Assembly (NCBI GenBank): GCA_046725935.1
Contig: JBKOZO010000073.1
Span: 9,341 to 73,340 of the forward strand
Direction: 5' to 3'
Source of the DNA: Acidobacteriota bacterium
GTDB taxonomy: Bacteria; Acidobacteriota; Thermoanaerobaculia; UBA5066; Gp7-AA6
DNA: 64,000 bases
Shown piece after piece: positions 3,762 to 40,668 of the stretch (the stretch's first letter is position 1; every line of letters starts with the position of its first letter). Below the pieces are notes generated by a model. The model ran no database searches and was not told the DNA's origin. It saw only the letters and a list, made by a program, of their open reading frames with translations. The position numbers were made by a program, and so were the translations under genes.

Positions 3762-3770
3762 GACGGCGTC

Positions 3771-5519: not shown

Positions 5520-6948
<1,429 letters not shown>

Positions 6949-6952
<4 letters not shown>

Positions 6953-10234: not shown

Positions 10235-10250
10235 TGGCACCGGGATTGCT
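10235..10250 (+). promoter_or_regulatory. Candidate sigma-54 promoter (-24/-12) for the 10295 lipoprotein gene
   Basis: TGGCACcgggaTTGCT matches the consensus perfectly with GG-N10-GC spacing. The predicted TSS is about 10261, giving a 34-nt leader with SD AAGGAGG. Confidence 0.7.
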
Positions 10251-11228: not shown

Positions 11229-11244
11229 TGCAAGGTCGATACCA
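11229..11244 (-). promoter_or_regulatory. Candidate sigma-54 promoter for the 11176 small secreted protein gene
   Basis: The coding strand reads TGGTATcgaccTTGCA, with a perfect -12 element, conserved GG in the -24 element and exact spacing. The leader would be about 42 nt. Confidence 0.5.
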
Positions 11245-16834: not shown

Positions 16835-17566
16835 TCACATCGCCTTGGCGCCTTCGGGCGTGAACACCTTGTCGTCGATCTTCGCGGGCTGGATGTCGAG
16901 GTACTCGAGACGTGTGATCTCGCCGGCGTTGGGGCCGAGCTTGTCCACGACCTCCATCTCGGCGACCGCGGTCTTGTCTCCGATCTTGCGGAACTTCGTG
17001 AAGGTGACCTCGCGCGCTTCGCGGCCCGATGGGAGGAAGAAGAGGAGCTTGCGCGCGCGCTTGTCCTGCGCATCGAGCCACAGCGTGACCTTGGGATAAG
17101 GAGCCTTCGGCGATTTGGCCGTCAGGTCGAGGACATACGCGGGCCGGTCTCCGAGGGTCTCGGTCCCGGGCCGCAGGACGGCCTCGTAATCCTCCGCCAG
17201 GCGCATGCTCGCCACGTCTCCGAACGAGGCGCCGCCCATGAGGCGCTGGTTCTTCGTGATGGGGACCGGATTCTCGGTTCCCGGGACGATCAGCCACATC
17301 TTCTCGCCTACGGTCAGCGCCTTGCGCCCGTTGTTCTTCCCGCCGCGGAAGACGATCAGCGCGTGATCGCGGCCCTTGACGTAGATGTCGAAGTCGGCCG
17401 TCCCGGCGGGCTTTCCGTCCACGATCTGCGTCGCGCGCGCCGTGATCTTGGCCTCCCCGAACGCCTGGCGCGCCTGGTCCACCGCGGTCAGCCACTCATG
17501 CACCTCGGCGTCCGTCGGCGCGGCCGCCATCGCCGCCGCGAGCAGGACCGCCCGGAAGTTAGACAT
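16835..17566 (-). CDS. Outer-membrane lipoprotein-sorting (LolA-like) periplasmic protein
   Basis: 243 aa with a signal peptide. Its sequence resembles the LolA_like family that accompanies FtsX-type ABC systems. It is the last gene of the ABC operon. Confidence 0.7.
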   Translation of the reverse strand: MSNFRAVLLAAAMAAAPTDAEVHEWLTAVDQARQAFGEAKITARATQIVDGKPAGTADFDIYVKGRDHALIVFRGGKNNGRKALTVGEKMWLIVPGTENPVPITKNQRLMGGASFGDVASMRLAEDYEAVLRPGTETLGDRPAYVLDLTAKSPKAPYPKVTLWLDAQDKRARKLLFFLPSGREAREVTFTKFRKIGDKTAVAEMEVVDKLGPNAGEITRLEYLDIQPAKIDDKVFTPEGAKAM

Positions 17567-19792: not shown

Positions 19793-20407
19793 CTACTTCG
19801 AAAACGTCTCCAGCAGCGTCTGCATGTCCTGGGCGTGCTCCTCTTCCTTGGCCAGGATCTCCTCCATCAGTCTGCGGGAGGTCGGGTCGTCGTTGCCCAG
19901 GAATCGGATGATCTCCGAATAGGACTCGATGGCCACGCGCTCGGCGACGAGGTCCTCGCGGATCATGTCCACCAGCGTCTTGCCCTCGACGTACTCGGAG
20001 TGACTGCGGGTCGCCAGCCCCTCGGGGTTCAGGTTGGGCTCGCCGTTGAGCTGCGTGATCCGGCCGGCGATGCGGTCCGCGTGGTCCTGCTCCTCGGTCG
20101 CGTGCTCGAGGAACTCCTGCGCCACGGCCTGCGCGTTGATTCCCGAGGCCATGAAGTAATGGCGCTTGTAGCGCAGCACGCACACGATCTCGGTGGCGAG
20201 AGCCTCGTTGAGCACACGGACGACGGTCTCGCGGTCGGCGCGGTAGTTCTCGGTCACGGCGCCTTCCTGGATGTGCCGCCGCGCGCGCTCGCGCAGCTCC
20301 CGGATGTCCGAGAGGAAGGGCATGTCGGTGGGAGCGCTCTCGGCGGGACGGGGTTTCATCGACGGGTTCTCGACGGGACGAGGCTTCATCGAGGCTTTCT
20401 TGCTCAT
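19793..20407 (-). CDS. Ferritin-like / bacterioferritin-family protein
   Basis: It is a four-helix-bundle di-iron type with EALATEI, EHATEEQDHADR and LAKEEEHAQD motifs. The N-terminal ~40 aa are Pro-rich, so the true start may be further downstream. Confidence 0.8.
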   Translation of the reverse strand: MSKKASMKPRPVENPSMKPRPAESAPTDMPFLSDIRELRERARRHIQEGAVTENYRADRETVVRVLNEALATEIVCVLRYKRHYFMASGINAQAVAQEFLEHATEEQDHADRIAGRITQLNGEPNLNPEGLATRSHSEYVEGKTLVDMIREDLVAERVAIESYSEIIRFLGNDDPTSRRLMEEILAKEEEHAQDMQTLLETFSK

Positions 20408-20607
20408 GGTTCCTCCCTGTTGTGCGACGGTTCGGGTTTCGAGTCGGGATGAACGCGGGGCTCGCGGATCGTGCGGGGCTCGCCCGGACGGCGTGGGTCG
20501 ACGGCGGGAACTTCCTTCCCCGGCTCATCGATCACCGGCTCCTGCGCCTCCGGGGGCTCCTCGCGGGGCGCGGACGGACGGGACGGCTGGGGGTCGCGAG
20601 CGTCCAT
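20404..20607 (-). CDS. 67-aa Pro/Glu/Arg-rich intrinsically disordered protein
   Basis: SD GGAGGA lies 4 nt before the ATG, and the stop overlaps the ferritin-like start. It is the first cistron after a sigma-54-like motif. I recognise no domain. Confidence 0.4.
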   Translation of the reverse strand: MDARDPQPSRPSAPREEPPEAQEPVIDEPGKEVPAVDPRRPGEPRTIREPRVHPDSKPEPSHNREEP

Positions 20608-20627: not shown

Positions 20628-20643
20628 TTCAAGAATCGTGCCG
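20628..20643 (-). promoter_or_regulatory. Candidate sigma-54 promoter for the IDP/ferritin-like operon
   Basis: The coding strand reads CGGCACGattcTTGAA. The -24 element is perfect and the -12 element has GA instead of GC. The predicted TSS falls on the SD. Confidence 0.5.
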
Positions 20644-20688: not shown

Positions 20689-21657
20689 ATGACGGAAGGA
20701 AATCCGACGGTCGAAGGATCCGGAGGCCTGCGCGGGCGGCTCTCCCCGCCTCAACCGGCGCCCGTCGAGCCCGATCGCATCCCCGTCCGGACCGGATCTT
20801 TCGCCGTGGTGGGAGACCTCCAGCCCACGTCGGGGTTCGAGGTCTGGCGGGAGTCGAACACCAATGAGCGCCGCGCGATCCTGCGCGAAGTCTCGGAGGA
20901 GAAGCCGGACTTCGTGGCGCTCCTCGGAGACCTGGTCTTCTGCGGCTCATCGGCCGCGGCGTGGACCGACTTCGACCGCCTCTGCGGACCGCTGAAGAGC
21001 GGAGGAATCCCGGCCTACCCGGTCCTGGGCAACCACGAGTACTGGGTCTATCGCCGGCCGGCCCTCGCCAACTACTTCAAGCGGTTCCCGCACCTGCGCC
21101 GCCGGCACTGGTATTCGGCGGTCTACGGCCCGCTCGGCCTGGTCTTTCTGGACTCGAATCTGCGCTGGCTTCCCGCCGCGGACTGGCGCGACCAGAAGGA
21201 CTGGTTCGTACGAACGCTCGCTTCGTGGGACGCCGACGCGGGGATCCGCGGGATTCTCGTGCTGCTTCACCACCCGCCGTTCACCAACAGCCGCGTCACC
21301 TCCGATGCCCTTCCCGTCCAGCGCGACTTCGTGCCGGCCTTCGGGCGCTCGCCAAAAACGCTGGCCATGATCTCCGGCCACGTCCACAGCTACGAGCGTT
21401 TCCTCCGGGACGGAAAGACCTTTCTCGTCGCCGGGGGCGGCGGAGGTCCGCGCGCTCCCCTGGCCGAAGGCCGCCGGCGCCGACACGCCGACGACCTCTT
21501 CTCCGGCGGCACGCTCCGCGCGTTTCACTATCTGCGCTTTCGCCCGGAGGAGTCGGGGCTCGAGGCCGAAGTCCGCGGAATCGAGAAGGACGGCTCCCAT
21601 TTCGAAACGATCGACCGCTTTCGTCTGGCCTGGCCCTCCGCGGGGTCGGGCGCGTGA
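20689..21657 (+). CDS. Metallophosphoesterase (calcineurin-like)
   Basis: Motifs GDLVFCG, GNHEYW, LLHHPPF and GHVHSYERF are present. The internal ATG at 20689 is preferred. Confidence 0.8.
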   Translation: MTEGNPTVEGSGGLRGRLSPPQPAPVEPDRIPVRTGSFAVVGDLQPTSGFEVWRESNTNERRAILREVSEEKPDFVALLGDLVFCGSSAAAWTDFDRLCGPLKSGGIPAYPVLGNHEYWVYRRPALANYFKRFPHLRRRHWYSAVYGPLGLVFLDSNLRWLPAADWRDQKDWFVRTLASWDADAGIRGILVLLHHPPFTNSRVTSDALPVQRDFVPAFGRSPKTLAMISGHVHSYERFLRDGKTFLVAGGGGGPRAPLAEGRRRRHADDLFSGGTLRAFHYLRFRPEESGLEAEVRGIEKDGSHFETIDRFRLAWPSAGSGA

Positions 21658-22631
21658 GCCAACTCGGGCATTCCGGGCTCCCCCATCGGGTCTCGTCGAT
21701 CCTCCGCGGCTGGCTGCACCCCGGGTTTCCCGCCGCCGCCCGACGACGGCCGTGCGTCGTCGTCGGACACCGCGGCGCGGCCCGGCTGGAGCCGGAGAAC
21801 ACGATCGCGTCGTTCCGGCGCGCGGTCGCACTCGGCGCGGACGCCATCGAGACCGATCTCTCGTTCACCGCCGACGGCCGTTTCGCCCTGTGGCACGACG
21901 CCGATCCGGACGAAAGGGTGGCCCTCGCGAGGCAGCTCGGCACCGAGCGGCTCGCCTACCGTCCATGTGTTCCGCCCGTCGGCTCGCCCGCGCGCAAACC
22001 CGTACGCCTCCTGCGCGCGGAAGAGCTCCTTGCGCACTACGCCTACGTCCGCAATGAGCTGTCGGAGATTCCCGTCGGCGGGCCGGCGCGCGCCGGCGTC
22101 GAGATGCTCGACGATCTGCTGGCGTGGACGACGACGACGTCCGCGCTGCGCAACGTCTTCCTGGACATCAAGCTCGCCGAGGACCAGACCGAGGCCGCCG
22201 CGGCGCTGGTCACCCTTCTCCGGGCGCGCCGCGACGCAAAGAGCGGGATGACGTTCCACCTGCTGAGCCCGCAGGCGGAGATCGTGCGGACTCTCGTCCA
22301 GGCCGCGAGGAGCGAAGATCCGGGCTTTCTCCGCGTCAGCGCCGACTTCGAGCTGCCCGGAGCCGCGGAGACCGGCCCGCGGACCGGAGCCCCGGACGTC
22401 AGCCTCGGCTGCGGCGGGAGGTTCTGGTCGGGCTTTCGCTACGACGTCGGCCAGGCCCTGCTCGCCCGAGACCGCGGCCGGATCGAGTGGGTCGTGGCCT
22501 GGACGATCAACGGCCGCCGCAAGCTGGAACCGCTGGTGAAGGCCGGCATCGACGGCGTGCTCACCGACGAGTCAGACGTCCTGCGGAAGATCGTCGAGTC
22601 GGAGCGAGGGGGAGTGGCCGCAGCTGCCTAG
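21654..22631 (+). CDS. Glycerophosphodiester phosphodiesterase family protein
   Basis: The GTG start overlaps the upstream stop (GTGA). Motifs GHRGAARLEPENT and ETDLSFTADG are present. Confidence 0.75.
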   Translation: MSQLGHSGLPHRVSSILRGWLHPGFPAAARRRPCVVVGHRGAARLEPENTIASFRRAVALGADAIETDLSFTADGRFALWHDADPDERVALARQLGTERLAYRPCVPPVGSPARKPVRLLRAEELLAHYAYVRNELSEIPVGGPARAGVEMLDDLLAWTTTTSALRNVFLDIKLAEDQTEAAAALVTLLRARRDAKSGMTFHLLSPQAEIVRTLVQAARSEDPGFLRVSADFELPGAAETGPRTGAPDVSLGCGGRFWSGFRYDVGQALLARDRGRIEWVVAWTINGRRKLEPLVKAGIDGVLTDESDVLRKIVESERGGVAAAA

Positions 22632-23188
22632 GCGTCGAGCGCGTCGCCCGACAGTCTTCGGACCGGGGCGACCTCCGGCCGAGGCTCCCGCGAGCCTCGC
22701 CGGACGTACTCGTCGAAGAGCACGACCGGAGCGGGTTTGTCGACCCGCATGAAATGCGCCGACCGCGCCTCGACGGCGATCAGGACGATGCGGGGATCTT
22801 CGGGACCCCCGTCGCGCACGCCGCCCTCGTCGGGGAACCAGACCTTCCAGGTCGGTTCGTAGAGCTCGCGGATCTTGGACCGGTCGCGGACCACGCGCGC
22901 CACGCCGGATACGGAGACCCATTCACGGGTCCGGTCCTTGTAGTACGCGAGATTGACGTTCGGCTCCGCGACGATCTCCGCGAGCTTGGGAGAGGATTCC
23001 CGCCCGACGAACCAGAAATGCGCGCCGTCCGCCCGGCGCTGCGTGGCCATCGGGCGAGACACGAGGCTCCCGTCCCGGCGCCGCGTCGTCATCATCGCGA
23101 CTTCGATGTCCTCGATCAGCTCGTACAGCTGGTCGACCTCGTCGAAGATCGCCGCGGCGGGACCCGCGTCGGGAGCCTTTCGGCTCAC
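22628..23188 (-). CDS. Pyridoxamine 5'-phosphate oxidase-fold protein (general stress protein 26-like)
   Basis: The GTG start overlaps the upstream stop. The sequence (VAMMTTRRRDGSLVSRPM...FWF...) is typical of the PNPOx/GSP26 family. Confidence 0.78.
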   Translation of the reverse strand: MSRKAPDAGPAAAIFDEVDQLYELIEDIEVAMMTTRRRDGSLVSRPMATQRRADGAHFWFVGRESSPKLAEIVAEPNVNLAYYKDRTREWVSVSGVARVVRDRSKIRELYEPTWKVWFPDEGGVRDGGPEDPRIVLIAVEARSAHFMRVDKPAPVVLFDEYVRRGSREPRPEVAPVRRLSGDALDA

Positions 23189-23796
23189 AGCATCTCCTCC
23201 CGGGACTGCCTCGCCCGGGCGGCTCCGATCGCCGTCTTGACCTCTTTCTCCTCTTCGGGCGGGGGCAGCACCGCCGGCATTCCGAGCGCCTGGATCCAGA
23301 GCTCGCGGGCCCATCCGGTCGTGTGGTACAGGTGCTCGTCCTCCTGCTCCTCGACCTCGGCGTGGGCCTGCTTGAGCGCGCCCGCTTCCTCGCCCCGGCG
23401 TTTGTCGGCGTACTCGCCCATGAGCTCCCAGTTCAGGTGGTCCTTCGTCTCGGCGAGAACGACGCACTCCGCGGCGAGGACCTGGGCGGCGTCGGGATTT
23501 CCGGCGTTGATCGCCAGGCGCATCGCTTCGACGAGCGCGGTCCCGATCTTGCGAACGGCCTGCCGTCCCGGCGTCTCCTGGTCCGGATCGAAGCCGATCT
23601 TCTCCAGCAGCTCCCGCATGATGCGAACGTGGTTCTGCGTCTGCTCCAGATACTCCTGCCACTCACGCGCCAGATCCTCGTTGACCGCGCACTGGAGGGC
23701 GGTCGTGTAGACCTGGACGCCGCCGAGCTCGGTCTCCAAGGACTGGTACAGCAAGTCCTTGAGCTGCTCCTTGGCAGTGAGTCGTCTCACGCTCAT
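23185..23796 (-). CDS. Ferritin-like four-helix-bundle stress protein (YciE/DUF892-like?)
   Basis: 203 aa starting at MSVRRL with SD GGAAAGGGGGAA. It has a helical repeat pattern with E/H ligand-like positions. The family assignment is tentative. Confidence 0.6.
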   Translation of the reverse strand: MSVRRLTAKEQLKDLLYQSLETELGGVQVYTTALQCAVNEDLAREWQEYLEQTQNHVRIMRELLEKIGFDPDQETPGRQAVRKIGTALVEAMRLAINAGNPDAAQVLAAECVVLAETKDHLNWELMGEYADKRRGEEAGALKQAHAEVEEQEDEHLYHTTGWARELWIQALGMPAVLPPPEEEKEVKTAIGAARARQSREEML

Positions 23797-23825: not shown

Positions 23826-23841
23826 TGCACGCCGCGTGCCA
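23826..23841 (-). promoter_or_regulatory. Candidate sigma-54 promoter for the ferritin-like/PNPOx operon
   Basis: The coding strand reads TGGCACGcggcGTGCA with exact spacing. The predicted TSS is about 23815, 19 nt before the ATG. Confidence 0.65.
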
Positions 23842-23850
23842 GCGCACCGC

Positions 23851-24220
23851 TCACGTTTGGGAGCGCGCGAGGCCCAGGATTCGTTCCACGATCCGCTCGC
23901 GCCACGGCCGGTTTCGCCACTCTTCGAGGGTGAAAACGTTCGGGTCAGCTGCTGCGCAAAGTCGCGGTCCAGCGCGGTCCAGCAGGACGTGCACCTCGAC
24001 GCCGGCGCGGGCCCGCTCGCTCAGGGCCTCCGCGAACTGCTCGCCGATCGAGCCGGACAAGTAGATGTAGGTCTCGAAGGTGATCGTCCGCCGGGCCCCG
24101 CGGATCGCCTCGAGCATGGCATCGAGCGCACGAGATCCGACGGTCGATCTTGCGTTCACTCCAGGAGAGATTCTGCGCGAGAAGGACGACCGCGAGCGCC
24201 GCCACGACCGCGCCCAGCAC
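23851..24220 (-). pseudogene. Degraded phospholipase D/cardiolipin synthase-like gene (frameshift plus large internal deletion)
   Basis: One frame gives a TM helix plus NLSWSERKIDRR. A second frame gives ALDAMLEAIRGARRTITFETYIYLSGSIGEQFAEALSERARAGVEVHVLLD (N-terminal PLD half), joined directly to a C-terminal tail FTLEEWRNRPWRERI. Both HKD cores are missing. Confidence 0.55.
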
Positions 24221-24404
24221 GGCGAGGACCGGTTTTTCGGCCTTTCGTCACACTGCCTCGAGGCGGCTCTCGCCCCGGCCCTCACCGCACCGTCCGCCGG
24301 ACAGGGAACTCCGCCCCCCTTTATTCAGGAGGACGGGTCCGCGCTGGCGGGATGTGACTGGCAGGACGGGCTTGAGTTTCCTGAGAGCCCTTGCCCAGTC
24401 TTTA

Positions 24405-24420
24405 AGCAAAACAGGTGCCA
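24405..24420 (-). promoter_or_regulatory. Candidate sigma-54 promoter pointing at the PLD/cls pseudogene
   Basis: The coding strand reads TGGCACctgttTTGCT, a perfect consensus match. Confidence 0.6.
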
Positions 24421-24592: not shown

Positions 24593-24608
24593 TGGCACCC
24601 GCGTTGCA
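24593..24608 (+). promoter_or_regulatory. Candidate sigma-54 promoter for the low-affinity iron permease-family gene
   Basis: TGGCACccgcgTTGCA is a perfect match. The predicted TSS is about 24619, just before SD GGAGG and the ATG at 24632. Confidence 0.7.
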
Positions 24609-24631: not shown

Positions 24632-25171
24632 ATGAGAAGCAAGCCTGCACACGCCGTGGGTGAGCGCCCCGAAGCGGCGAAGAGCGCGCGGCGCGGTCAG
24701 AAGACTAAGCCGGAAAGCCGGTCCGGACGCGTCGGGCACGCTCTCGAGAAGTTCTCCCTGGCGGCGACCGAACGGGCCGGGAGCTCCTGGGCGTTCGCGG
24801 TGGCCGTCGCGGTCATTCTCGCCTGGGTCGTGACGGGACCGATCTTCCACTTCTCGGATACGTGGCAACTCGTCATCAACACGGGCACGACGATCATCAC
24901 GTTCCTGATGGTCTTCCTGATCCAGCGCGCCCAGAACAAGGAAGGTAAGGCCGTCCAGCTGAAGTTGAACGAGATCGTCGCGGCCATCAAGGGAGCGAGC
25001 AACCGCCTCATCGACGTCGAGAGTCTGTCGGAGGACGAGATCTGCACGCTCAAGCTTCACTACGCCGAGATCGCGAAGCTTGCCGCCGCTCGGGGCGGGA
25101 TCCTCGAGTCGCACTCGATCGACGAAGCGCGGGCCCGCGACGAAGAAAAGCACGGCAGTAAGGCGAAGTGA
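24632..25171 (+). CDS. Low-affinity iron permease family membrane protein (Pfam04120-like)
   Basis: It contains SWAFAVAVAVILAWVVTGPIFHFSDTWQLVINTGTTIITFLMVFLIQRAQNKE, which is characteristic of this family. Confidence 0.82.
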   Translation: MRSKPAHAVGERPEAAKSARRGQKTKPESRSGRVGHALEKFSLAATERAGSSWAFAVAVAVILAWVVTGPIFHFSDTWQLVINTGTTIITFLMVFLIQRAQNKEGKAVQLKLNEIVAAIKGASNRLIDVESLSEDEICTLKLHYAEIAKLAAARGGILESHSIDEARARDEEKHGSKAK

Positions 25172-25394: not shown

Positions 25395-25580
25395 TCAGCG
25401 CAGGGAGTTTGCGACCTTGCGGGCGCCCGCAAGCCCCAGGACGAGGAACACGAGGAACAGGATCGCGAAGATCGCGGCGAGCACCTTCGCGATCGCGAAC
25501 GACGTGCCGGCGACCCCGGTGAAGCCCAGGAGCGCCGCCACCAGTCCGATCACGAAGAACGTCAAAGCGAGTTTCAACAC
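25395..25580 (-). CDS. DUF1328 (YtjA-like) small membrane protein
   Basis: (M)LKLALTFFVIGLVAALLGFTGVAGTSFAIAKVLAAIFAILFLVFLVL matches the DUF1328 pattern. The GTG start at 25580 is preferred over 25586. Confidence 0.8.
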   Translation of the reverse strand: MLKLALTFFVIGLVAALLGFTGVAGTSFAIAKVLAAIFAILFLVFLVLGLAGARKVANSLR

Positions 25581-25604
25581 CGGCACCCCCCCGGCGCGGG
25601 AATC

Positions 25605-25620
25605 TGCAAGAGGAGTGCCC
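25605..25620 (-). promoter_or_regulatory. Candidate sigma-54 promoter for the DUF1328 gene
   Basis: The coding strand reads GGGCACtcctcTTGCA with exact spacing. It lies back-to-back with the SOD motif in a 108-bp spacer. Confidence 0.6.
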
Positions 25621-25654
25621 GGGGGCCGCCGGGATACGCTTGACGCTCCGGCTC

Positions 25655-25670
25655 CGGCACGCTTTTCGCT
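25655..25670 (+). promoter_or_regulatory. Candidate sigma-54 promoter for the superoxide dismutase gene
   Basis: CGGCACGctttTCGCT has exact spacing. The predicted TSS is about 25681, at SD GAGGGAGG. Confidence 0.6.
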
Positions 25671-25694
25671 CCGACAGCCGGAGGGAGGACTCTC

Positions 25695-26324
25695 ATGCCC
25701 GTCTACAAGCTACCGGATCTCCGATACGACTACGGCGCTCTCGAGCCCCACATCACGGGGAAGATCATGGAACTGCACCACGACAAGCACCACGCCGGCT
25801 ACGTCAAGGGCGCCAACGACACCCTCGAAAAGCTCGACGCCGCTCGCGACGCCCGCGACTTTTCCAAGGTGGCCGGCCTCGAGAAGGCGCTGGCCTTCAA
25901 CCTCTCCGGCCACGTTCTGCACTCGCTGTTCTGGCAGAACCTGTCGCCCAAGGCGGGCGGCCGCCCCGAAGGCGACCTCGCCGAAGCGATCGACCGCGAC
26001 TTCGGCAGCTTCGACGTGTTCCGGAAACAGCTGACCGAGGTCGCCTCGACGATCATGGGATCGGGATGGGCGGCGCTGGTCTGGGAACCGCTCGCGGGAC
26101 GTCTCCTGACCACGCAGATCTACGACCACCAGTCGAACCTGGCCCAGGCGGGCGTTCCGATCTTGGTTCTCGACGCGTGGGAACACGCCTTCTATCTCCA
26201 GTACCAGAACCGCAAGACGGAGTTCTTCGAAGCGGTGTGGAGCGTCTGGAACTGGGAAGACGTGGCCGAACGCTTCGCGTCCGTTCGGCAGCTGGACGTT
26301 TCGCTCGAAGGCGTGGCGCGCTAG
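25695..26324 (+). CDS. sod: Fe/Mn-family superoxide dismutase
   Basis: 209 aa with HHDKHH and DAWEHAFYLQYQN metal-ligand motifs. Confidence 0.95.
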   Translation: MPVYKLPDLRYDYGALEPHITGKIMELHHDKHHAGYVKGANDTLEKLDAARDARDFSKVAGLEKALAFNLSGHVLHSLFWQNLSPKAGGRPEGDLAEAIDRDFGSFDVFRKQLTEVASTIMGSGWAALVWEPLAGRLLTTQIYDHQSNLAQAGVPILVLDAWEHAFYLQYQNRKTEFFEAVWSVWNWEDVAERFASVRQLDVSLEGVAR

Positions 26325-26379: not shown

Positions 26380-26568
26380 TCAGTGCGCCGGGGTCGGGGT
26401 CACGTCGGTCGTGACCGTCGTCGTCGTCTCCGTCGTGGTGGAGGCGCCGCCCGGCGTGGCTTCGGTCTTGGTCTGCGTGTCCGTCGTCGTGGTGGTGGTT
26501 TCCCTCTTCTGGCATCCGACGGACGCGGCGAGGATGAAAATTCCGGCCAGGGCGAGAATCCTTTTCAT
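26380..26568 (-). CDS. 62-aa Thr-rich lipoprotein
   Basis: It has SD AAGAGGAG and signal/lipobox LAASVGC. The mature part is about 50% Thr (TTTTTTDTQTKTE...TTTETTTTVTTD). Confidence 0.55.
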   Translation of the reverse strand: MKRILALAGIFILAASVGCQKRETTTTTTDTQTKTEATPGGASTTTETTTTVTTDVTPTPAH

Positions 26569-26617: not shown

Positions 26618-26633
26618 TGCAAGATCCGTTCCC
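26618..26633 (-). promoter_or_regulatory. Candidate sigma-54 promoter for the Thr-rich lipoprotein gene
   Basis: The coding strand reads GGGAACGgatcTTGCA with exact spacing. The 39-nt leader contains the hairpin gcttcg-gcgc-cgaagc. Confidence 0.55.
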
Positions 26634-29968: not shown

Positions 29969-30777
29969 GCGCTGTCTCCGGAGCATGCGGCGTTCCAGTC
30001 GGCGAGGAAGCGGCGCAGCTCTTCGGGAGGCCGGATCCAAGCCGCGGCCTGCGTGGGCCTGGGCTCGGGCCGCACCAGGACCGCGAGCCCTCGGTCGGCG
30101 AGCGCTCCGAACGCGTCCTCGTCGGTCCGGTCGTCGCCCAGGTACGCGATCGACGCGCCCGGTCCGAGCTCTTCGAGAACCGTCCGCACCACCATACCCT
30201 TCCCCTGGCCTTCCGGACGCAGCTCGACGCCACCGTCGAACCCGAGCAGCTCGAGACCGAACTCGCGCGCGGCCTCGGACCACGTCTCGATCAGCTCCGA
30301 TTCGGCGTCGGCGAATTCCTCGGCCGGCGCGCCGCGGCCGTGGACCGCGAGCCCGTAGGGCTTGCGCTCGAGAAGCGCGCCCCAGCCCAGCTCCGCCATC
30401 GACGCGGACACTCGGTCGAGGAACTCCGCCGCATCCTTCTTCGGCGGAGGGCCGATCCAGCAACCCTCGAGGGTCAGCCGCTCGAGCCCGTGCGAGCCCC
30501 ATAGCTCCGCGACGTTCTCGAGCCCGGTGAGGCGCCTCAGCTCCGCGATCGGCCGGCCGCTCACGATGCCGATGCGCGTCGGCCGCGGAGCGGCCGCAAT
30601 GCTCTTGAGCGCGGCGCGCACCCAGCGGTAGGGCGCCGCCGCCGCTCGCCTAGCCGAGAAAGGCGCCAGCGTACCGTCGTAGTCGAGCAGCAGCGCCCGG
30701 CGTGGAGCGGCCCGCAGACCCGCGAAAAACGGGCCGAACCCTGTGCCGGGTCGCAGAAGAGAGCTCTCGCTGGACAT
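29965..30777 (-). CDS. otsB: Trehalose-6-phosphate phosphatase (HAD)
   Basis: HAD motifs LLLDYDGTL and YLGDDRTDEDAF are present. Confidence 0.88.
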   Translation of the reverse strand: MSSESSLLRPGTGFGPFFAGLRAAPRRALLLDYDGTLAPFSARRAAAAPYRWVRAALKSIAAAPRPTRIGIVSGRPIAELRRLTGLENVAELWGSHGLERLTLEGCWIGPPPKKDAAEFLDRVSASMAELGWGALLERKPYGLAVHGRGAPAEEFADAESELIETWSEAAREFGLELLGFDGGVELRPEGQGKGMVVRTVLEELGPGASIAYLGDDRTDEDAFGALADRGLAVLVRPEPRPTQAAAWIRPPEELRRFLADWNAACSGDSA

Positions 30778-30847: not shown

Positions 30848-31063
30848 TTATTCGTTGCCGGAGTCGACGTCCTCGCCGGTCGGCTTCTGTTCGCGTTCGC
30901 CGGGGCGGGACGCGCCCTCTCTCGGGGATTCCTGGTCCTCCCGCCCGGGGCGGGTCTCCGTGGGCTCTTCGGACTCGCTGCGGGGAGGAGCGTCGCGCTC
31001 GTCGGGACGATTCGGTTGATCGTCGATGCCCGGCTCGCGTTCGCGGCCTTCGAAGTCGCTCAT
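30848..31063 (-). CDS. 71-aa highly acidic intrinsically disordered protein (hydrophilin-like)
   Basis: It has SD GAGGAG and starts MSDFEGREREPGIDDQPNRPDERD. It has no hydrophobic core. It is the first gene after a sigma-54-like motif, upstream of otsBA. Confidence 0.45.
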   Translation of the reverse strand: MSDFEGREREPGIDDQPNRPDERDAPPRSESEEPTETRPGREDQESPREGASRPGEREQKPTGEDVDSGNE

Positions 31064-31111: not shown

Positions 31112-31127
31112 TGCACGAAGCGTGCCG
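31112..31127 (-). promoter_or_regulatory. Candidate sigma-54 promoter for the acidic IDP-otsB-otsA-GH15 unit
   Basis: The coding strand reads CGGCACGcttcGTGCA with exact spacing. The 38-nt leader contains the hairpin gtgggc-attcac-gcccac. Confidence 0.65.
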
Positions 31128-31137: not shown

Positions 31138-31153
31138 TGGCAGGACGATTGCT
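31138..31153 (+). promoter_or_regulatory. Candidate sigma-54 promoter for the metallothionein-like/ku unit
   Basis: TGGCAGgacgaTTGCT has exact spacing. The predicted TSS is about 31164, at SD GGGGAGG. Confidence 0.6.
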
Positions 31154-31176: not shown

Positions 31177-31329
31177 ATGAACTGCGAACACCCCGGTTGT
31201 CATTGCACGGACGCCACGGTCGAGCGCGACGGCAAGCAATTCTGCAGCGAGCGCTGCGCGGACGCCGCGCAGTCGAAGCCGCGCGGCACAGCCTGCGACT
31301 GCGGGCATCCCGACTGCGCCGCGGTCTGA
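31177..31329 (+). CDS. 50-aa Cys/His-rich metallothionein-like protein
   Basis: MNCEHPGCHCTDATVERDGKQFCSERCADAAQSKPRGTACDCGHPDCAAV has a C/H spacing reminiscent of Pseudomonas-type bacterial metallothioneins. It was not separately called in the ORF track. Confidence 0.6.
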   Translation: MNCEHPGCHCTDATVERDGKQFCSERCADAAQSKPRGTACDCGHPDCAAV

Positions 31330-31335: not shown

Positions 31336-32157
31336 ATGCGGCCGATCTGGAACGGACACATCACCTTCGGGCTGATCTCGATACCGGTTTCCCTTTACTC
31401 GGCCGTCGAAGCCTCGGAGCGGGTGTCCTTCCGGCTCCTGCACCGGAAGGACCACGCGCCGATCGTCTACAAGAAGTTCTGCAGCGAGGAGGACGTCGAA
31501 GTCCCCAACGACGAGATCGTGCGCGGCTACGAGGTCGACAAGGGCGAATATGCGCTGGCGGAAAAGGAAGACATCGAGAAAGCCGAGGAGGAAGCCGGCG
31601 GCGCCGACGACATGGAGGTCCTGGAGTTCGTCGAGTACTCGGCTTTGAACCCGTTGCTGTTCGACAATCCGTACTACGTCGGAGCCCGCAAGGGCGGCGA
31701 GCACGCCTACGGCGTCCTGAGGGAGGCGCTCAACGACGCGCACCGCGTGGCGATCGTGCGCATCCGGATGCGCAAGAAGCCCCAGCTCGCCACGCTGCTG
31801 CCGGGGCCCAAGGTGCTCTCGCTGGAGACGCTGCGGCCGTTCGGCGAGCTGCGCAATCCGACCGGAGTCGAGGCCCCCGCGAACGTGCGCAAGCCCGCCG
31901 AGGTCAAGATGGCGCGCATGTTGATCGACCAGATGTCCGAGGAGGGCTGGGATCCGGCCGAGCACCCCAACACGTACAAGAAGGCGCTCCGCAAGCTCCT
32001 TTCCTCGCGCCGTAAGTTCGCGCTCAAGGGCAAGGGCCGCGCGGCGGCGGAAGTTCCCGCCAACGTCGTGGACCTGATGGAGTCGCTGAAGAAGAGCCTG
32101 GGCGCCGCACGCACTCGGCCGAAGCGTGCCGCTTCGCGGCGCGCCGGAGCCGCCTAA
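31336..32157 (+). CDS. ku: Non-homologous end-joining protein Ku
   Basis: It starts MRPIWNGHITFGLISIPVSLYSA and has a K/R-rich C-terminal tail. Its stop overlaps the convergent gene's stop. Confidence 0.93.
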   Translation: MRPIWNGHITFGLISIPVSLYSAVEASERVSFRLLHRKDHAPIVYKKFCSEEDVEVPNDEIVRGYEVDKGEYALAEKEDIEKAEEEAGGADDMEVLEFVEYSALNPLLFDNPYYVGARKGGEHAYGVLREALNDAHRVAIVRIRMRKKPQLATLLPGPKVLSLETLRPFGELRNPTGVEAPANVRKPAEVKMARMLIDQMSEEGWDPAEHPNTYKKALRKLLSSRRKFALKGKGRAAAEVPANVVDLMESLKKSLGAARTRPKRAASRRAGAA

Positions 32158-34322
32158 GGCGCGACCTCTACGGCGTTTCCGCGCGACACTTCCACAGCCA
32201 CATCTCCCTCGGCGCGTTCGACGTGGACCTCAACACTCCCGGTGCGCCGCGTAACGAGGAGGTCCGCCTTCGCGCTCCCGACGCGCAGTCCGTCGATCCG
32301 AACCGCCTCGAGGAAGCGCGGCAGCCGCGGCCGCGAGAACTGCACCCGCCGCTCGGGGGCGCTCACTCGCAGGCCCAGGCACGACTGGATCAGCAGGAAC
32401 GCCGCTGCGGAGGACCAGGCCTGCGGCGCGCAGGCCAGCGGGTAGAGCGTCGGGGCCTGGCCGGGCACGCGCTCGAATCCGCAGACGAGCTCCGGCAGCC
32501 TGCGGATCGCGACGAAGCGCGAGAGGTCGAACATGCCCGTCAGGACGCGCACGGCGTGACCCGTGTGGCCGTAGCGCGAGAGCCCCGCGGCGATCAGAGC
32601 GTTGTCGTGGGGCCAGACCGAACCGTTGTGGTAGGACATGGGGTTGAACCCCTTCTGCCCCGCCGCCACGGTGCGCACCCCCCATCCGCTGAACGCGTCG
32701 GCGCTCAGGAGCGCGTCGGCCAGGACCCGGGCGCGCGCGCGCTTCGCGATGCCCGACCACAGAGCGTGCCCGGCGTTGGACGTGAGGACGCGGCAGGGTT
32801 TCTTGTCGCCGTCCAGAGCGAAGCTGTAGAAGGCCCGATTCGGATCCCAGAACGCTTCGTCGAACCGCTCCCGCAGCTGGTCGGCCTTTTCCGAGAGCCG
32901 TGTCGCAAGCTCCGGATCGCCGAGGACTTTCGCCACCGTCGCGGCGGCGCGGCGGGCCGCGTACGCGTAGCCCTGCACTTCGCACAGCGCGATCGGCGGA
33001 GCCGCGGGCGATCCGTCCTCGTGAAAGACCGCGTCGGAGGAATCCTTCCAGCCCTGATGCACGAGTCCGCGCGTCGCGTGCGACGCGTACTCGATGAAGC
33101 CGTCTCCGTCCCGGTCGCCGTACGTGTCCATCCACGCCAGTGCGCGCTCGATGTTGGGCCAGAGCTCCTCCAGGAGCGCGCGGTCTCCGGTTCGGTCGAA
33201 GTAGGCGCCGGCCAGCACGACGAAGAGCGGCGTGGCGTCGACGCTTCCGTAGTACCGCCCGAACGGGACCTCGCCGAGGTTGGCCATCTCGCTGTCGCGC
33301 CACTCGTGGAGGATCTTCCCGGGCTCCGCGTCGCGATCGGGATCCTCGGTCGTGGCCTGCGTGGCGGCGAGGAAGCGCAGCACTCCGCGCGCCGGCTCCG
33401 GATCCAGCCACAGCACCTCGAGCGCCGTGATGATTCCGTCTCGCCCGAAGGGCGCGCTGAACCACGGCGCGCCGGCGTAGGGATACGGCCCCCAGCGCGT
33501 CCGGGTCGTCATCATGCGCAGGTCCACCGCGGAGCGATGCAGCCAGAGGTCCAGCTCCTCGTTGGAGGCGCGCAGCGCGAACAGGTTGCCGGCATGGATC
33601 GGCAGGGATCCCGGAGGCTTCAACAGGCGCGGACGCTCCGAGGAGCGGCAGGCCACCGTCAGCTGCATCAGCCAATCCTTGCCGGCTTCGAGTTGGACCG
33701 GAAACTCCAGGCGCTGGGCCGCGACGTGCGCAGCCGGCGGCCGCGTGTGCACGGTCGCCTCGCGGACCACGCGATCGAGGCCCGTGTAGACGAAACGCAG
33801 GCCGCCGTTTTCGGGAGCGACCGGATGGCGGCGGCCGCGCGCGGCCCGCGTCATTCCCCGAACCTCGAAGATGTCGGCGAAATCCGCGTCGAGTAGGAAG
33901 GCGAGGTGCACCGTGACGGCGGAAGGCGCGTAACTGCGCATCCGCAGGCGCAGGTGCAGCCCCGCCGGCGTGACGCGCAGCTGTTTGCGCACGTGCACGC
34001 TGCCGCGCGGCACCACCAGGCGGTCGCCGTCGAACAGATCCGGGTTCGTCAAATCGGCCACGAAAGCCGAGTTGTCCCGGCGCACGCCCGACGACAGCAG
34101 GAACGGGCGCCCGCCGTCCAGTCCCATCGCCAGGCTCGACAGGTAGCGCGTTCCGGAGCGGTAGAGACCGAGGTCGCCGGTCCCGCCCGGGGCGATGTCG
34201 CCGAATCGGTCCACGACGGCGAAGGTCTCGTCCGCCTTCAGGACGTTCATCGACGCGTCGAGGCGCGCCGAGGACGCCCGGATCGCGAACGGGTTGCCGG
34301 TCTCTTCGAGTTCGGCGCTCAT
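32154..34322 (-). CDS. Amylo-alpha-1,6-glucosidase / glycogen-debranching-like (GDE_N + GDE_C) protein
   Basis: It starts at MSAELEE, overlapping the GT4 stop. Motifs PWFSAPFGRDGIIT, HQGWKDS, CEVQGYAY and YHNGSVWPHDN are present. Confidence 0.88.
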   Translation of the reverse strand: MSAELEETGNPFAIRASSARLDASMNVLKADETFAVVDRFGDIAPGGTGDLGLYRSGTRYLSSLAMGLDGGRPFLLSSGVRRDNSAFVADLTNPDLFDGDRLVVPRGSVHVRKQLRVTPAGLHLRLRMRSYAPSAVTVHLAFLLDADFADIFEVRGMTRAARGRRHPVAPENGGLRFVYTGLDRVVREATVHTRPPAAHVAAQRLEFPVQLEAGKDWLMQLTVACRSSERPRLLKPPGSLPIHAGNLFALRASNEELDLWLHRSAVDLRMMTTRTRWGPYPYAGAPWFSAPFGRDGIITALEVLWLDPEPARGVLRFLAATQATTEDPDRDAEPGKILHEWRDSEMANLGEVPFGRYYGSVDATPLFVVLAGAYFDRTGDRALLEELWPNIERALAWMDTYGDRDGDGFIEYASHATRGLVHQGWKDSSDAVFHEDGSPAAPPIALCEVQGYAYAARRAAATVAKVLGDPELATRLSEKADQLRERFDEAFWDPNRAFYSFALDGDKKPCRVLTSNAGHALWSGIAKRARARVLADALLSADAFSGWGVRTVAAGQKGFNPMSYHNGSVWPHDNALIAAGLSRYGHTGHAVRVLTGMFDLSRFVAIRRLPELVCGFERVPGQAPTLYPLACAPQAWSSAAAFLLIQSCLGLRVSAPERRVQFSRPRLPRFLEAVRIDGLRVGSAKADLLVTRRTGSVEVHVERAEGDVAVEVSRGNAVEVAP

Positions 34323-35440
34323 GACGTGACGCCTCCGGCCTGTCGCGAACGGGCTCCGGCTTCGCGGGACTCGGCCACGCGGCGATAGAGATTCAGGTAG
34401 TCCAGCGCCATCCTCCGGGACGTGAATCGCTGCTCGAATCTCTGGCGGCAAACGCTCCGGTCGATTCGATCGAGATTCTCGACGGCGCCTACCGCGTCGC
34501 GGATGGTGTCGACCACCCAGCCGTTGACGCCGTCTTCCACGATCTCCTCGACAGACCCCGCCCGAAACGCGAGAACGGGCGTGCCGCACGACATCGCCTC
34601 GATCATGACGAGTCCGAAGGGCTCGGGCCAATCGATCGGGAACAGCAGGGCCGCGGCCCCGCCGAGAAAGTCGGGCTTCTCGTGCTCCGAGATCTCCCCC
34701 AGGAATTCGACGTGCGGTTGCAGCAGGAGTCTCCGGATCTCCCGGTCGAAATAGTCCATGTCGGCGCGGTCCACCTTGGCCGCGATCCGGAGCGGCCACC
34801 CGGCACGCCGCGCGATCTCGATCGCGCGATCCACGCGCTTCTCCGGAGAGATCCGGCCGAGGAAGGCGAGGTAGCCGCCGTCCCCCGGCGCGAACGGCAA
34901 CAGATCCCGCGGCAGCCCGTGGTGGACGGTCCCCTGCCAGTTGGCGTGGGGCAGGGGCGCGCGCTGCGAATCCGAGATGGACGCGAGCGCCATCTCCTCG
35001 TACTCGCGGTAGACGGGCACCAGATCCGGCAGGTCCAGCCGCCCGTGGAGCGTCGTCAGCGTGGGCGTACCGGTGCGCCGCGCGAACGGGTAGTGGAGAT
35101 AGTCGGTATGGAGATGGATGACGTCGAAGTTGGGCGCGCGCTCGAAGACGTGCTCGAGGTGGACGATGTGACGCGCGAGCGGATCCGCGCAGGATCCGTC
35201 CAGACGCAGCGAGCGCGGCGATCCCGGAACGAGCCGAGCGCGCGTGCGCGAGTCGCCGCTGGCGAAGAGCGTCACGTCGTGGCCCATCGCCACGAGCTCC
35301 TCGGTCAGGTACGAGACCACGCGCTCGGTACCTCCGTAGAGCTTGGGCGGAACGCTCTCGTAGAGCGGCGCCACCTGGGCGATCCGCAAGCCTCCGCGCA
35401 CGCGGCGAGGCCAGTCGAACCCGGTATCGGGATTCCCCAC
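34319..35440 (-). CDS. Glycosyltransferase family 4
   Basis: It has RIAQVAPLYESVPPKLYGGTERVV and EPFGLVMIEAMSCGTPV (the EX7E region). The start is uncertain: the predicted sigma-54 TSS at about 35442 favours GTG 35401 or TTG 35389. Confidence 0.85.
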   Translation of the reverse strand: MGNPDTGFDWPRRVRGGLRIAQVAPLYESVPPKLYGGTERVVSYLTEELVAMGHDVTLFASGDSRTRARLVPGSPRSLRLDGSCADPLARHIVHLEHVFERAPNFDVIHLHTDYLHYPFARRTGTPTLTTLHGRLDLPDLVPVYREYEEMALASISDSQRAPLPHANWQGTVHHGLPRDLLPFAPGDGGYLAFLGRISPEKRVDRAIEIARRAGWPLRIAAKVDRADMDYFDREIRRLLLQPHVEFLGEISEHEKPDFLGGAAALLFPIDWPEPFGLVMIEAMSCGTPVLAFRAGSVEEIVEDGVNGWVVDTIRDAVGAVENLDRIDRSVCRQRFEQRFTSRRMALDYLNLYRRVAESREAGARSRQAGGVTS

Positions 35441-35452: not shown

Positions 35453-35468
35453 AGCAGGATCCGTGCCG
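35453..35468 (-). promoter_or_regulatory. Candidate sigma-54 promoter for the GT4-GDE unit
   Basis: The coding strand reads CGGCACGgatcCTGCT with exact spacing. Confidence 0.6.
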
Positions 35469-36615: not shown

Positions 36616-36765
36616 TTATACCGTTCGACGCCCCTGGATCAGGTTGATGATCAGGATGACGACCGCGATCACGAGCAGGATGTGAATGAAGCCCGAGAGC
36701 GTGTATCCGGAAACCAGCCCGAGGAGCCAGAGGATCAGGAGGATGACGAAGATGGTCCACAGCAT
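36616..36765 (-). CDS. lmo0937-family 49-aa membrane protein
   Basis: It is absent from the ORF track (under 60 aa). The translation is MLWTIFVILLILWLLGLVSGYTLSGFIHILLVIAVVILIINLIQGRRTV, the typical family signature. SD AAGGAAG is present. Confidence 0.8.
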   Translation of the reverse strand: MLWTIFVILLILWLLGLVSGYTLSGFIHILLVIAVVILIINLIQGRRTV

Positions 36766-36816: not shown

Positions 36817-36832
36817 AGCGATTTTCGTGCCA
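36817..36832 (-). promoter_or_regulatory. Candidate sigma-54 promoter for the lmo0937-HAD unit
   Basis: The coding strand reads TGGCACGaaaaTCGCT with exact spacing. The leader is 41 nt. Confidence 0.65.
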
Positions 36833-38117: not shown

Positions 38118-38204
38118 CCCGGGGATCTCCGTTGAGGAACCTTCGGCCTTCATTCTCGGGATCGTCTATTTAACACGATGCACCCGGTTTTGGCCGGGGG
38201 GTTT

Positions 38205-38447
38205 TCAGCCGGCGCTCAAACCGCTTCCCAGCAACATTTCCCGGCCCCGTTCGAACAGCGAAAACGCCTTATCGAGCTCGCGGCGGGCGACTTCGAGCGG
38301 CTCGGCGGGGTCCGCCCCCTTCTTCGCCAGCCGGGAGGCCCGCTCGAGATGCAGGGCGACGGCGGACAGAGGTGTTGCGACGTCGTGAAAGAAACGGCGC
38401 AGATCGGCGGACGCGGCCGGCGAGCCCGCCTGAGAGTCGCTCGTCAT
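38205..38447 (-). CDS. 80-aa stand-alone DHp (HisKA-like) helical-hairpin protein with no ATPase domain
   Basis: It has SD AAGGAG, an H-box LRRFFHDVATPLSAV and a second helix. The gene ends 88 nt upstream of the activator gene. Confidence 0.55.
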   Translation of the reverse strand: MTSDSQAGSPAASADLRRFFHDVATPLSAVALHLERASRLAKKGADPAEPLEVARRELDKAFSLFERGREMLLGSGLSAG

Positions 38448-38829: not shown

Positions 38830-39465
38830 CTACAGCGCCGGTTCGACGAGCGTGGCCTTGAAGCCGTGCTCCCCCTTCAGGTAGGTGACCTTGACGCGCT
38901 GTCCGACCGCGAGGTTGGCGGCCTTCATGGACACGTTCTCATCCAGATCGAACGTGTAGTCTTTGTCGCCCGGGCCCGTCACCTTGATCTTCTTTCCGGG
39001 CTCGTACTCTTTGACCGTGCCGACGACCACTTCGGACGTCGCCTTGGTGTTGGGTCCCGGTCCCGAGTGCTTCACGGTCGACTCGGAGTGAACGCGCGGA
39101 GCGCTCGCCGAAGCCTGCGCGCCCTTGGGAGCCTCCGAGAGAACGGTGACACGCTCGCGGCCGTCGTTGTCCTTGTAGTACTTGATCTTGGCCATCTGGC
39201 CGACGACGACGGAGCCTTCGAGCTTCGCGTTCTCGTCGAGATCGAAGCTGTAGTCCTTGCCGCCCGGGCCTTCGACCTTGATCTTCTTTCCGGGCTCGTA
39301 CTCCTTGACCGTACCGACGACCGTTTCGGTCTTCGTCTTCACGTCGGGGCCCGGCCCGGTCTTCTTGACCGTCGTCTCCGTGTGCTGCTTTTCCTGGCCG
39401 AGCGCGAATGCACCGCCGCCTACGGCCACGCAAAGAGCGATTGCCATACCGGTAATGCGTTTCAT
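38830..39465 (-). CDS. Secreted protein made of two ~90-aa tandem repeats, unknown family
   Basis: It has a signal peptide. The core VVGTVKEYEPGKKIKV(E/T)GPG(G/D)KDY(S/T)FDLDEN occurs twice. The DNA repeat is visible at about 38935-39030 versus 39228-39325. Confidence 0.7.
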   Translation of the reverse strand: MKRITGMAIALCVAVGGGAFALGQEKQHTETTVKKTGPGPDVKTKTETVVGTVKEYEPGKKIKVEGPGGKDYSFDLDENAKLEGSVVVGQMAKIKYYKDNDGRERVTVLSEAPKGAQASASAPRVHSESTVKHSGPGPNTKATSEVVVGTVKEYEPGKKIKVTGPGDKDYTFDLDENVSMKAANLAVGQRVKVTYLKGEHGFKATLVEPAL

Positions 39466-39510: not shown

Positions 39511-39526
39511 TTCAAGAAGCGTGCCG
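39511..39526 (-). promoter_or_regulatory. Candidate sigma-54 promoter for the tandem-repeat protein gene
   Basis: The coding strand reads CGGCACGcttcTTGAA, the same GA variant of -12 as at 20628. The 35-nt leader has SD AGGAGGA. Confidence 0.5.
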
Positions 39527-40652: not shown

Positions 40653-40668
40653 TGCAATCGGCGTGCCG
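40653..40668 (-). promoter_or_regulatory. Candidate sigma-54 promoter for the BON-domain gene
   Basis: The coding strand reads CGGCACGccgaTTGCA, a perfect core match. The predicted TSS at about 40642 coincides with the first base of an 8-bp hairpin (40624-40642, gcgagaca-cca-tgtctcgc). Confidence 0.7.

Follow-up and report, generated by a model that had tools for sequence, protein, structure and literature searches.

Closely opposed sigma-54-type promoters in an acidobacterial stress-protection island and a candidate activator without a DNA-binding domain

Two opposed boxes in the DUF1328/SOD spacer

We analysed a 64,000-nucleotide stretch from the genome of an uncultured soil acidobacterium of the Thermoanaerobaculia (assembly GCA_046725935.1, contig JBKOZO010000073.1, positions 9,341 to 73,340; hereafter, the window), which has a G+C content of about 68%. 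At positions 25587-25694 it contains a 108-bp spacer between the oppositely oriented genes of a DUF1328 small membrane protein and a Fe/Mn superoxide dismutase (SOD). Within this spacer lie two opposed boxes of the sigma-54 -24/-12 type, GGGCACTCCTCTTGCA facing DUF1328 and CGGCACGCTTTTCGCT facing SOD, separated by 34 bp. The window has about 17 such putative promoters, counting these two, and 15 of the 17 are found within a stress and desiccation protection island of about 22 kb (Table 1). Judging from the sequence, the opposed motifs are most probably genuine -24/-12 promoters that would be bound by sigma-54 (RpoN).

The predicted transcription start (+1) was placed 12 nt after the C at position -12, C(-12), following the standard -24/-12 geometry. 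In the DUF1328 box, C(-12) is position 25606 and the predicted +1 is 25594; in the SOD box, the corresponding positions are 25669 and 25681, the latter inside GGAGGGAGG. The DUF1328 gene was taken to start at GTG 25580 (the alternative being GTG 25586) because its relatives begin with MLKLAL, and the alignment of SOD homologues runs from residue 1. When the spacer was aligned with its equivalents from three related loci (L004, L005 and L081), conservation was limited to cTGCAAGAnnnGTGCC, CGGCACGnnTTTCGCTa and both Shine-Dalgarno sequences. The boxes are separated by 34 bp in the window and by 22, 11 and 14 bp in the relatives, and the gap sequences are unrelated. The DUF1328 box is kept in the same three loci as GGCACnnnTCTTGCA, 27-29 nt before the ATG, and 11 of 17 SOD orthologues from Acidobacteriota (72-79% protein identity) have an upstream box 25-36 nt before the ATG.

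Table 1. Boxes, genes and predicted leaders in the window, ordered by position within each kind of feature
Feature	Positions	Strand	Sequence	Downstream gene(s) or basis of assignment	Predicted leader (nt)
Outlying sigma-54 box	10235-10250	plus	TGGCACCGGGATTGCT	DUF11 protein (10295-10795)	
Outlying sigma-54 box	11229-11244	minus	TGGTATCGACCTTGCA	105-aa protein without assigned family	
Sigma-54 box	20628-20643	minus	CGGCACGATTCTTGAA	67-aa hydrophilic protein (20404-20607), then Dps/ferritin (19793-20407)	10
Weaker box, 7.2 bits	20657-20672	plus	CGGCGTCATTCTTGCA	Metallophosphoesterase (20689-21657)	6
Sigma-54 box	23826-23841	minus	TGGCACGCGGCGTGCA	DUF892/ferritin-like (23185-23796), then PNPOx-like gene (22628-23188)	19
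Orphan sigma-54 box	24405-24420	minus	TGGCACCTGTTTTGCT	Decayed cardiolipin-synthase/PLD-like gene	
Sigma-54 box	24593-24608	plus	TGGCACCCGCGTTGCA	Low-affinity iron permease (24632-25171)	13
Sigma-54 box	25605-25620	minus	GGGCACTCCTCTTGCA	DUF1328; box read directly from the sequence and with weight matrix	14
Sigma-54 box	25655-25670	plus	CGGCACGCTTTTCGCT	SOD; box read directly from the sequence and with weight matrix	14
Sigma-54 box	26618-26633	minus		62-aa lipoprotein (26380-26568)	39
Sigma-54 box	31112-31127	minus	CGGCACGCTTCGTGCA	71-aa hydrophilic protein (30848-31063)	
Sigma-54 box	31138-31153	plus	TGGCAGGACGATTGCT	Metallothionein-like 50-aa gene (31177-31329), then Ku (31336-32157)	13
Sigma-54 box	35453-35468	minus		GT1 glycosyltransferase, then glycogen-debranching-like gene (32154-35389)	
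Sigma-54 box	36817-36832	minus	TGGCACGAAAATCGCT	DUF5670 (36616-36765), then HAD hydrolase	
Sigma-54 box	39511-39526	minus	CGGCACGCTTCTTGAA	211-aa secreted protein (38830-39465)	
Sigma-54 box	40653-40668	minus		BON-domain protein (39601-40599)	
Sigma-54 box	41428-41443	minus		REC-only response regulator (40676-41386)	
DUF1328 small membrane protein gene	25395-25580	minus		Pfam PF07043	
Fe/Mn SOD gene	25695-26324	plus		Pfam Sod_Fe_N and Sod_Fe_C	
Candidate activator gene, 415 aa	36870-38117	minus		Pfam: REC, AAA+ sigma-54-interaction domain and lid	
80-aa open reading frame, H-box-like motif	38205-38447	minus	FFHDVATPLSAV	Directly upstream of the activator gene	

Motif statistics and sigma-54 identity

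The core GGCAC-N5-TTGC occurs 25 times in the window with at most one mismatch, versus 13.6 +/- 3.6 times in dinucleotide shuffles, and none of 100 shuffles reaches 25. A sigma-54 weight matrix (at least 9 bits) yields 33 matches, versus 14.7 +/- 3.5 in shuffles. About 19 of these 33 fall in intergenic DNA, which makes up 11% of the window; each is oriented toward its downstream gene, and this gene is 18-65 nt away in every case. When the core spacing was varied from N0 to N11, N5 alone was enriched in intergenic DNA (16 matches versus 0-6 at the other spacings). An apparent excess at N11 was rejected as a separate signal, being due to the same sites matched via the T-rich stretch after the -12 element. 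The genes used as controls (the activator, the 80-aa open reading frame, an ABC transporter, the Ku start within its operon, an outer-membrane-like protein and OtsB) never score above 8 bits, and the housekeeping genes flanking the island have no boxes except for the outliers at 10235 and 11244.

Could the boxes be chance matches in GC-rich DNA? Expressed as boxes of at least 12 bits per 10 kb, their density is 5.0 in the island (19.5-41.5 kb), 3.9 in the related islands and 0.7 in the rest of the window. In 612 kb of equally GC-rich loci (GC 0.70) from Actinobacteria, a phylum reported to be without a sigma-54 system (PMC3162934), it is 0.56, so that the background is not zero. The island nonetheless exceeds this background 7- to 9-fold, and the boxes are kept at orthologous positions even though their flanks have diverged. 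Together with the shuffles, the single enriched spacing and the confinement to gene-facing intergenic positions, this led us to reject chance, the probability of which we consider negligible.

The consensus of the 17 best sites is cYGGCACG-N4-TTGCW, in which exactly 10 bp separate the GG from the GC doublet. It equals the classical -24/-12 consensus, reportedly that of Barrios et al. 1999. The boxes are located upstream of genes, face them and are retained in the orthologous upstream regions of Thermoanaerobaculia as gene-specific variants at a near-constant distance, bearing out the sigma-54 assignment made in an earlier note on this DNA. A motif read by something other than sigma-54, namely, the operator of a stress regulator or a promoter of the sigma-70/extracytoplasmic function (ECF) family that resembles -24/-12, would suit the content of the island, which is similar to that of stress regulons under ECF or repressor control in other phyla, as well as the fact that no rpoN was observed in the 64-kb window. 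However, the motif is asymmetric and gene-facing, the divergent pairs carry two copies and no shared palindrome, the GG-N10-GC doublets with the extended consensus fit sigma-54 and no sigma-70-family pattern, and the island encodes an activator specific to sigma-54. We therefore regard such a reader as highly improbable. A palindromic operator in particular was rejected, given the asymmetry of the motif, the many single oriented copies and the range of paired gaps (9-172 bp). No sigma-70 consensus match was found within 19.5-32.5 kb.

Opposed pairs in the window and its relatives

Besides the focal pair, opposed boxes are found at 20628-20643/20657-20672 (gap of 13 bp), 31112-31127/31138-31153 (10 bp) and 24405-24420/24593-24608 (172 bp). 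All four pairs had been listed in the earlier note, and reading the sequence directly gives the same positions and the same gaps of 34, 13 and 10 bp. The 'quasi-palindromic attcTTG spacer' described there for the 20628/20657 pair is a misreading: this sequence is not in the spacer and corresponds to the -17 to -13 part of both boxes. Across the window and its relatives, 15 opposed pairs have gaps of 9, 10, 10, 11, 12, 13, 14, 17, 21, 21, 21, 22, 34, 94 and 172 bp. Two separate opposed boxes are thus found repeatedly, in at least 13 spacers where 9-34 bp lie between them and neither gap sequence nor gap length is conserved, in agreement with the compact bidirectional layout proposed earlier.

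The tightness of these pairs raises the question of whether they fire both ways. At gaps of 9-14 bp, two holoenzymes might exclude each other or only one box might work, in which case the promoters would be real and the pair would act as a toggle or include a decoy. In the tightest pairs, no more than 15-18 bp separate the -24 G's, one box of the 20628/20657 pair is weak, and none of the 15 gaps is shorter than 9 bp, from which we infer a steric floor for two holoenzymes. Yet both boxes are conserved across genomes, each with its own gene and Shine-Dalgarno sequence, and the 34-bp gap of the focal pair should permit double occupancy. Exclusion of this kind therefore appears rather improbable.

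Several boxes can be followed into the relatives. The metallothionein-like gene has TGGCAGnnnnnTTGCT 25-28 nt upstream in five genomes (27-28 nt in L004, L005, L081 and L083), and the equivalent opposed box of the 71-aa gene is also present in L083 and L081. The box of the DUF892/ferritin-like gene is kept in L081 (16 bits, 26 nt from the start). In four genomes, including L005, L082 and L083, DUF5670 is preceded by TGGCACGnnnTTCGCT at 50-57 nt. The 211-aa secreted protein gene has CGGCACGGTTCTTGAA 47-54 nt upstream in four genomes, with the TTGAA variant in L012, L082 and L083. Two gene starts are uncertain. The glycosyltransferase could begin at 35389, 35401 or 35440, and the metallophosphoesterase, whose box is 18 nt from the ATG at 20689, has no Shine-Dalgarno sequence.

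The orphan box at 24405-24420 has a counterpart in L004, which retains TGGCACCTCGTTTGCT ahead of an intact 460-aa cardiolipin-synthase/PLD-like gene. The decayed open reading frame of the window (23851-24420, minus strand) matches two separated pieces of this gene (L004, ~2800-4210), and its GTG start in L004 corresponds to CAG in the window. By its sequence, this promoter seems to have outlived its gene.

A further sigma-54-like box, TGGAACGCCGCATGCT (13.5 bits; 29982-29997, minus strand), falls within otsB, at its 3' end and 15 nt ahead of the ATG of otsA. L083 also keeps this box (~17250-17265), which overlaps the conserved codons W-N-A-A-C-S, so that coding constraint may account for its conservation. 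Directly after TTGCW, at about -10 to -5, 4 of the 17 boxes have a T-rich nTTTC(G/C) (23826-23841, 35453-35468, 40653-40668 and 11229-11244), and a fifth has gattcc.

Predicted start sites and leaders

In five promoters, C(-12) is located 22-26 nt before the start codon (22 nt for 20607, 25 for 24632, 26 for 25695, 25 for 31177 and 26 for 25580), which is within the 22-27 nt claimed previously. In these five, the first nucleotide of the Shine-Dalgarno core falls at about -1 to +3 of the predicted transcript, so that the geometry fits the suggestion, also made before, of transcripts starting at or near the Shine-Dalgarno sequence. In the leaders predicted for the 67-aa/Dps operon and the iron permease, for instance, GGAGG stands at +2. 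Leaders of 10-15 nt that carry a Shine-Dalgarno sequence are short, yet mechanistically unproblematic. Overall, about 40% of the promoters have very short predicted leaders, and the remaining ones have leaders of 31-43 nt. Wrongly assigned start codons were rejected as the source of the short distances for SOD, DUF1328 and the metallothionein-like gene, because these proteins align with their homologues from residue 1 onwards and their genes have conserved Shine-Dalgarno sequences. Taken over the window and L081-L083, the distances from C(-12) to the start look bimodal (~22-36 nt and 43-60 nt), suggesting two leader classes in one regulon.

Gene content of the island

According to Pfam, the boxes precede the genes given in Table 1, including those for SOD, Dps, Ku, the BON-domain protein and small membrane proteins. 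OtsB and OtsA, which are responsible for trehalose synthesis, and a GH15 enzyme are encoded in the same block. One promoter type is thus found ahead of many unlinked protection genes, as in a stress regulon, and the same gene set bears boxes in L081-L083. This content points to a set of genes that protect from oxidative stress, desiccation and DNA breaks. The REC-only response regulator behind the box at 41428-41443 may be a feedback arm of the regulon. Homologues of the SOD and of the island activator described below come from metagenome-assembled genomes of Thermoanaerobaculia/Acidobacteriota. In an Rfam search, no known RNA family was found in the island; the sole match in the window is a selenocysteine tRNA (RF01852, 67.6 bits) at 56833-56927 on the minus strand.

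A candidate activator without a DNA-binding domain

The island encodes a response regulator of 415 aa (Table 1) that is a candidate activator of these promoters. Its AAA+ domain (PF00158, E = 6e-73) has an intact GAFTGA loop, which reads ERGAFTGADKRR. By contrast, a Pfam search detected no HTH_8 domain (PF02954) either in this protein or in its 120 closest homologues, which are 75-96% identical, 402-451 aa long (one of 551 aa) and share the same architecture. The absence of this helix-turn-helix (HTH) domain is not a failure of detection, because a PilR-like paralogue encoded in the same window (5516-6952, plus strand) scores HTH_8 at E = 1.6e-8; in the alignment, the activator family lacks the corresponding HTH segment of about 45 residues. 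Instead, members of the family end in a tail that is short and variable and in which Pro, Ala, Lys and Arg abound; in the window protein, it includes KKPAKRGARS. In the AlphaFold (AF2) model, the activator is ordered to about residue 385, whereas residues 389-415 have a pLDDT below 50 and no secondary structure. The basic tail could confer non-specific affinity for DNA. With its intact GAFTGA loop and neither a C-terminal HTH nor another DNA-binding domain, the protein has the features of the type Ic activators discussed below.

The activator gene adjoins the island in all four genomes examined (the window and L081-L083). In L081-L083, its neighbours are SOD, DUF1328, Ku, LigD, BON, an iron permease with DUF2231, DUF5670, HAD and OtsAB, and the island neighbours there carry boxes; hybrid histidine kinases and REC proteins are also encoded nearby. 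The 80-aa open reading frame upstream of the activator has no Pfam or NCBIfam match, and its homologue abuts the activator gene in L081-L083. In view of its H-box-like motif, it may be a stand-alone phosphotransfer (DHp-like) partner. Autoregulation of the activator was rejected, as no box lies upstream of the activator or of the 80-aa open reading frame in any genome compared. An AT-rich sigma-70-like box upstream of the activator (38165-38175) was also dropped, being not conserved and the 80-aa open reading frame abutting the activator in relatives.

The PilR-like activator is encoded beside PilS and PilB/T/C. This type IV pilus block occupies positions 3-6952 of the plus strand and comprises PilB-like, PilT-like and PilC-like proteins, a PilS-like kinase and the PilR-like activator. 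Thus, the cell has at least two sigma-54 activators.

Proposed mechanism and the enhancer question

We favour the reading, at a probability of roughly 0.65, that the boxes define a sigma-54 stress regulon opened from solution by the DNA-binding-domain-less response regulator of the island. In this scheme, sigma-54 holoenzyme would wait on each box as a closed complex until a phosphorelay switched on the REC-AAA+ activator, which would then contact sigma-54 from solution, like FlgR of Helicobacter pylori and CtcC of Chlamydia. Because the activator lacks a DNA-binding domain, neither enhancer nor DNA loop would be necessary, so that promoters could be placed back-to-back across as little as 9-34 bp and could lie near the ribosome-binding site. 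Two classes of transcripts would result, one with leaders of 10-19 nt that start at, or a few nt from, the Shine-Dalgarno sequence and the other with leaders of 31-43 nt.

Several observations weigh against this reading. rpoN is absent from the 64-kb window, the only DNA of this organism examined for it, and its presence has to be inferred from the two GAFTGA activators; near-perfect co-occurrence of such activators with sigma-54 has been reported (PMC3162934). The HTH-bearing activator present in the same cell creates a specificity problem for an activator without a DNA-binding domain that acts from solution. Some boxes deviate at normally invariant positions, with GGCGT instead of GGCAC, and at 39511-39526 and 20628-20643 (both minus strand) the -12 element is TTGAA instead of TTGCA. 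C(-12) of sigma-54 promoters is normally near-invariant; to judge by these sites, TTGAA may be another functional form of the -12 'lock'. Furthermore, six of the 17 SOD orthologues from Acidobacteriota are without a box. The loci concerned (L008-L011, L020 and L049; 72-74% identity) have a background-like motif density of 0.28 per 10 kb and, therefore, either the regulon is not universal in Acidobacteriota or the boxless SOD genes sit outside the island. In the L004 orthologue of the 24405 promoter (cls-like gene), GGGAGG is located just upstream of the predicted +1, which is why the true +1 may deviate by several nt from the 12-nt rule. Finally, the search for enriched k-mers between -200 and -30 of the 17 promoters, in which none was enriched after correction (best p = 1.6e-4 in ~2,400 tests), is a simple test with n = 17 and low power, and enhancers inside neighbouring coding DNA are possible.

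This last point bears on the alternative that the promoters are real sigma-54 promoters and enhancer-dependent, being served by HTH activators encoded elsewhere that bind in neighbouring coding DNA or downstream; the island activator would then be incidental or only the partner of a DNA-binding protein. NtrC-type enhancers can act within genes and at a distance, and the organism does encode at least one HTH-bearing activator. On the other hand, the 17 promoters share no upstream motif, only the boxes are conserved between opposed promoters, the sole activator that accompanies the island in all four genomes has no HTH, and the HTH-bearing activator of the window is encoded in a type IV pilus operon. 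We consider enhancer dependence unlikely, although less so than the other alternatives. The k-mer search gave no significant sign of a shared enhancer, and no shared activator site of the textbook kind, about 80-200 bp upstream, was found, which is weak negative evidence. Enhancer independence, an assumption of the earlier note, is indirectly supported by the lack of a DNA-binding domain in the activator, the lack of a shared k-mer and the unconserved sequence between the boxes, and may thus be tentatively accepted on sequence grounds.

Should Thermoanaerobaculia run their general stress response in this way, through a single activator of this kind beside conventional ones, specificity would require something new, such as a dedicated rpoN paralogue, selectivity encoded in the promoters (for instance, in the conserved TTGAA or TGGCAGG variants) or the basic tail. 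Moreover, tightly opposed pairs, with -24 elements 15-18 bp apart, might open together.

Comparison with known systems

A recognised minority of activators, classified as type Ic and including CtcC, FlgR and FleT, have no DNA-binding domain (PMC3162934). Activation by FlgR takes place 'without binding DNA' and 'from solution' (PMC3930126). CtcC serves 33 direct targets (PMC7482065). FlgR, which controls the RpoN flagellar regulon of H. pylori, and CtcC have the same combination of REC and AAA+ domains with GAFTGA and no C-terminal HTH as the island activator (PMC3930126, PMC3162934, PMC7482065), and in each case a single activator presumably acts on many -24/-12 promoters without an enhancer. 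The hosts differ, in that FlgR and CtcC are the single activators of small genomes, whereas here at least one additional, HTH-bearing activator is encoded. So do the regulons, which comprise flagella in one case and type III secretion/development in the other, versus stress and desiccation protection in the island. Distances from promoter to start codon listed for Chlamydia include 67, 95 and 178 nt (PMC7482065), whereas five promoters are at 22-26 nt here. In the literature searched, we found no description of tight back-to-back pairs for the FlgR and CtcC systems.

Enhancer-dependent promoters, such as glnAp2 with NtrC and nifH with NifA, share the same -24/-12 consensus, and dependence on an AAA+ activator is presumed here as well. 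Divergent pairs of sigma-54 operons are also known, for example, the orp or type III secretion system operons of Desulfovibrio vulgaris (PMC4641369, PMC3897727). In the textbook and D. vulgaris systems, activator sites, often with IHF, occupy the shared upstream region, whereas in the island this region is 9-34 bp long, unconserved and paired with an HTH-less activator. Accordingly, the earlier verdict that the arrangement is not a textbook one stands insofar as it is unusual, but enhancer-independent activation itself has a precedent in FlgR and CtcC. Sigma-54 has usually been described for a few enhancer-controlled operons per function, and here some 15 apparently enhancerless promoters lie in 22 kb. 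If true, enhancer-independent activation, so far known from pathogens with small genomes, would also operate in a free-living bacterium that has several activators. The 108-bp spacer would represent a compact natural bidirectional sigma-54 cassette, which might serve as a tightly off, ATP-gated synthetic promoter pair, and the boxes provide a simple annotation rule for this regulon in metagenome-assembled genomes.

In gene content and phosphorelay-type control, the island resembles the general stress regulons of sigma-B, sigma-S and EcfG/PhyR, with which it shares SOD, Dps/ferritin-like proteins, trehalose synthesis, Ku/LigD, DUF1328, BON and small proteins. However, sigma-B, sigma-S and EcfG are of the sigma-70/ECF family and involve partner switching, whereas the island would depend on sigma-54 and on ATP-driven opening by an AAA+ protein. 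Our literature search returned no sigma-54 stress regulon described for Acidobacteriota or Thermoanaerobaculia. It is conceivable, albeit somewhat short of an even chance, that the general stress and anhydrobiosis response of Thermoanaerobaculia, and perhaps of other Acidobacteriota, is run via sigma-54 and one response-regulator activator without a DNA-binding domain. With the same reservation, such a system would do the work of sigma-B, sigma-S or EcfG in an ATP-gated, enhancerless manner, beside conventional enhancer-binding activators. The regulon would also provide the abundant, almost uncultured soil Acidobacteriota with a candidate master switch for surviving stress and desiccation. Taken singly, the -24/-12 promoter, the HTH-less REC-AAA+ activator and stress regulons of this content are already known. 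What appears to be new is their combination, that is, a dense, enhancerless sigma-54 protection regulon in a free-living acidobacterium with multiple activators, with conserved back-to-back promoter pairs 9-34 bp apart and a class of leaders predicted to start at the Shine-Dalgarno sequence.

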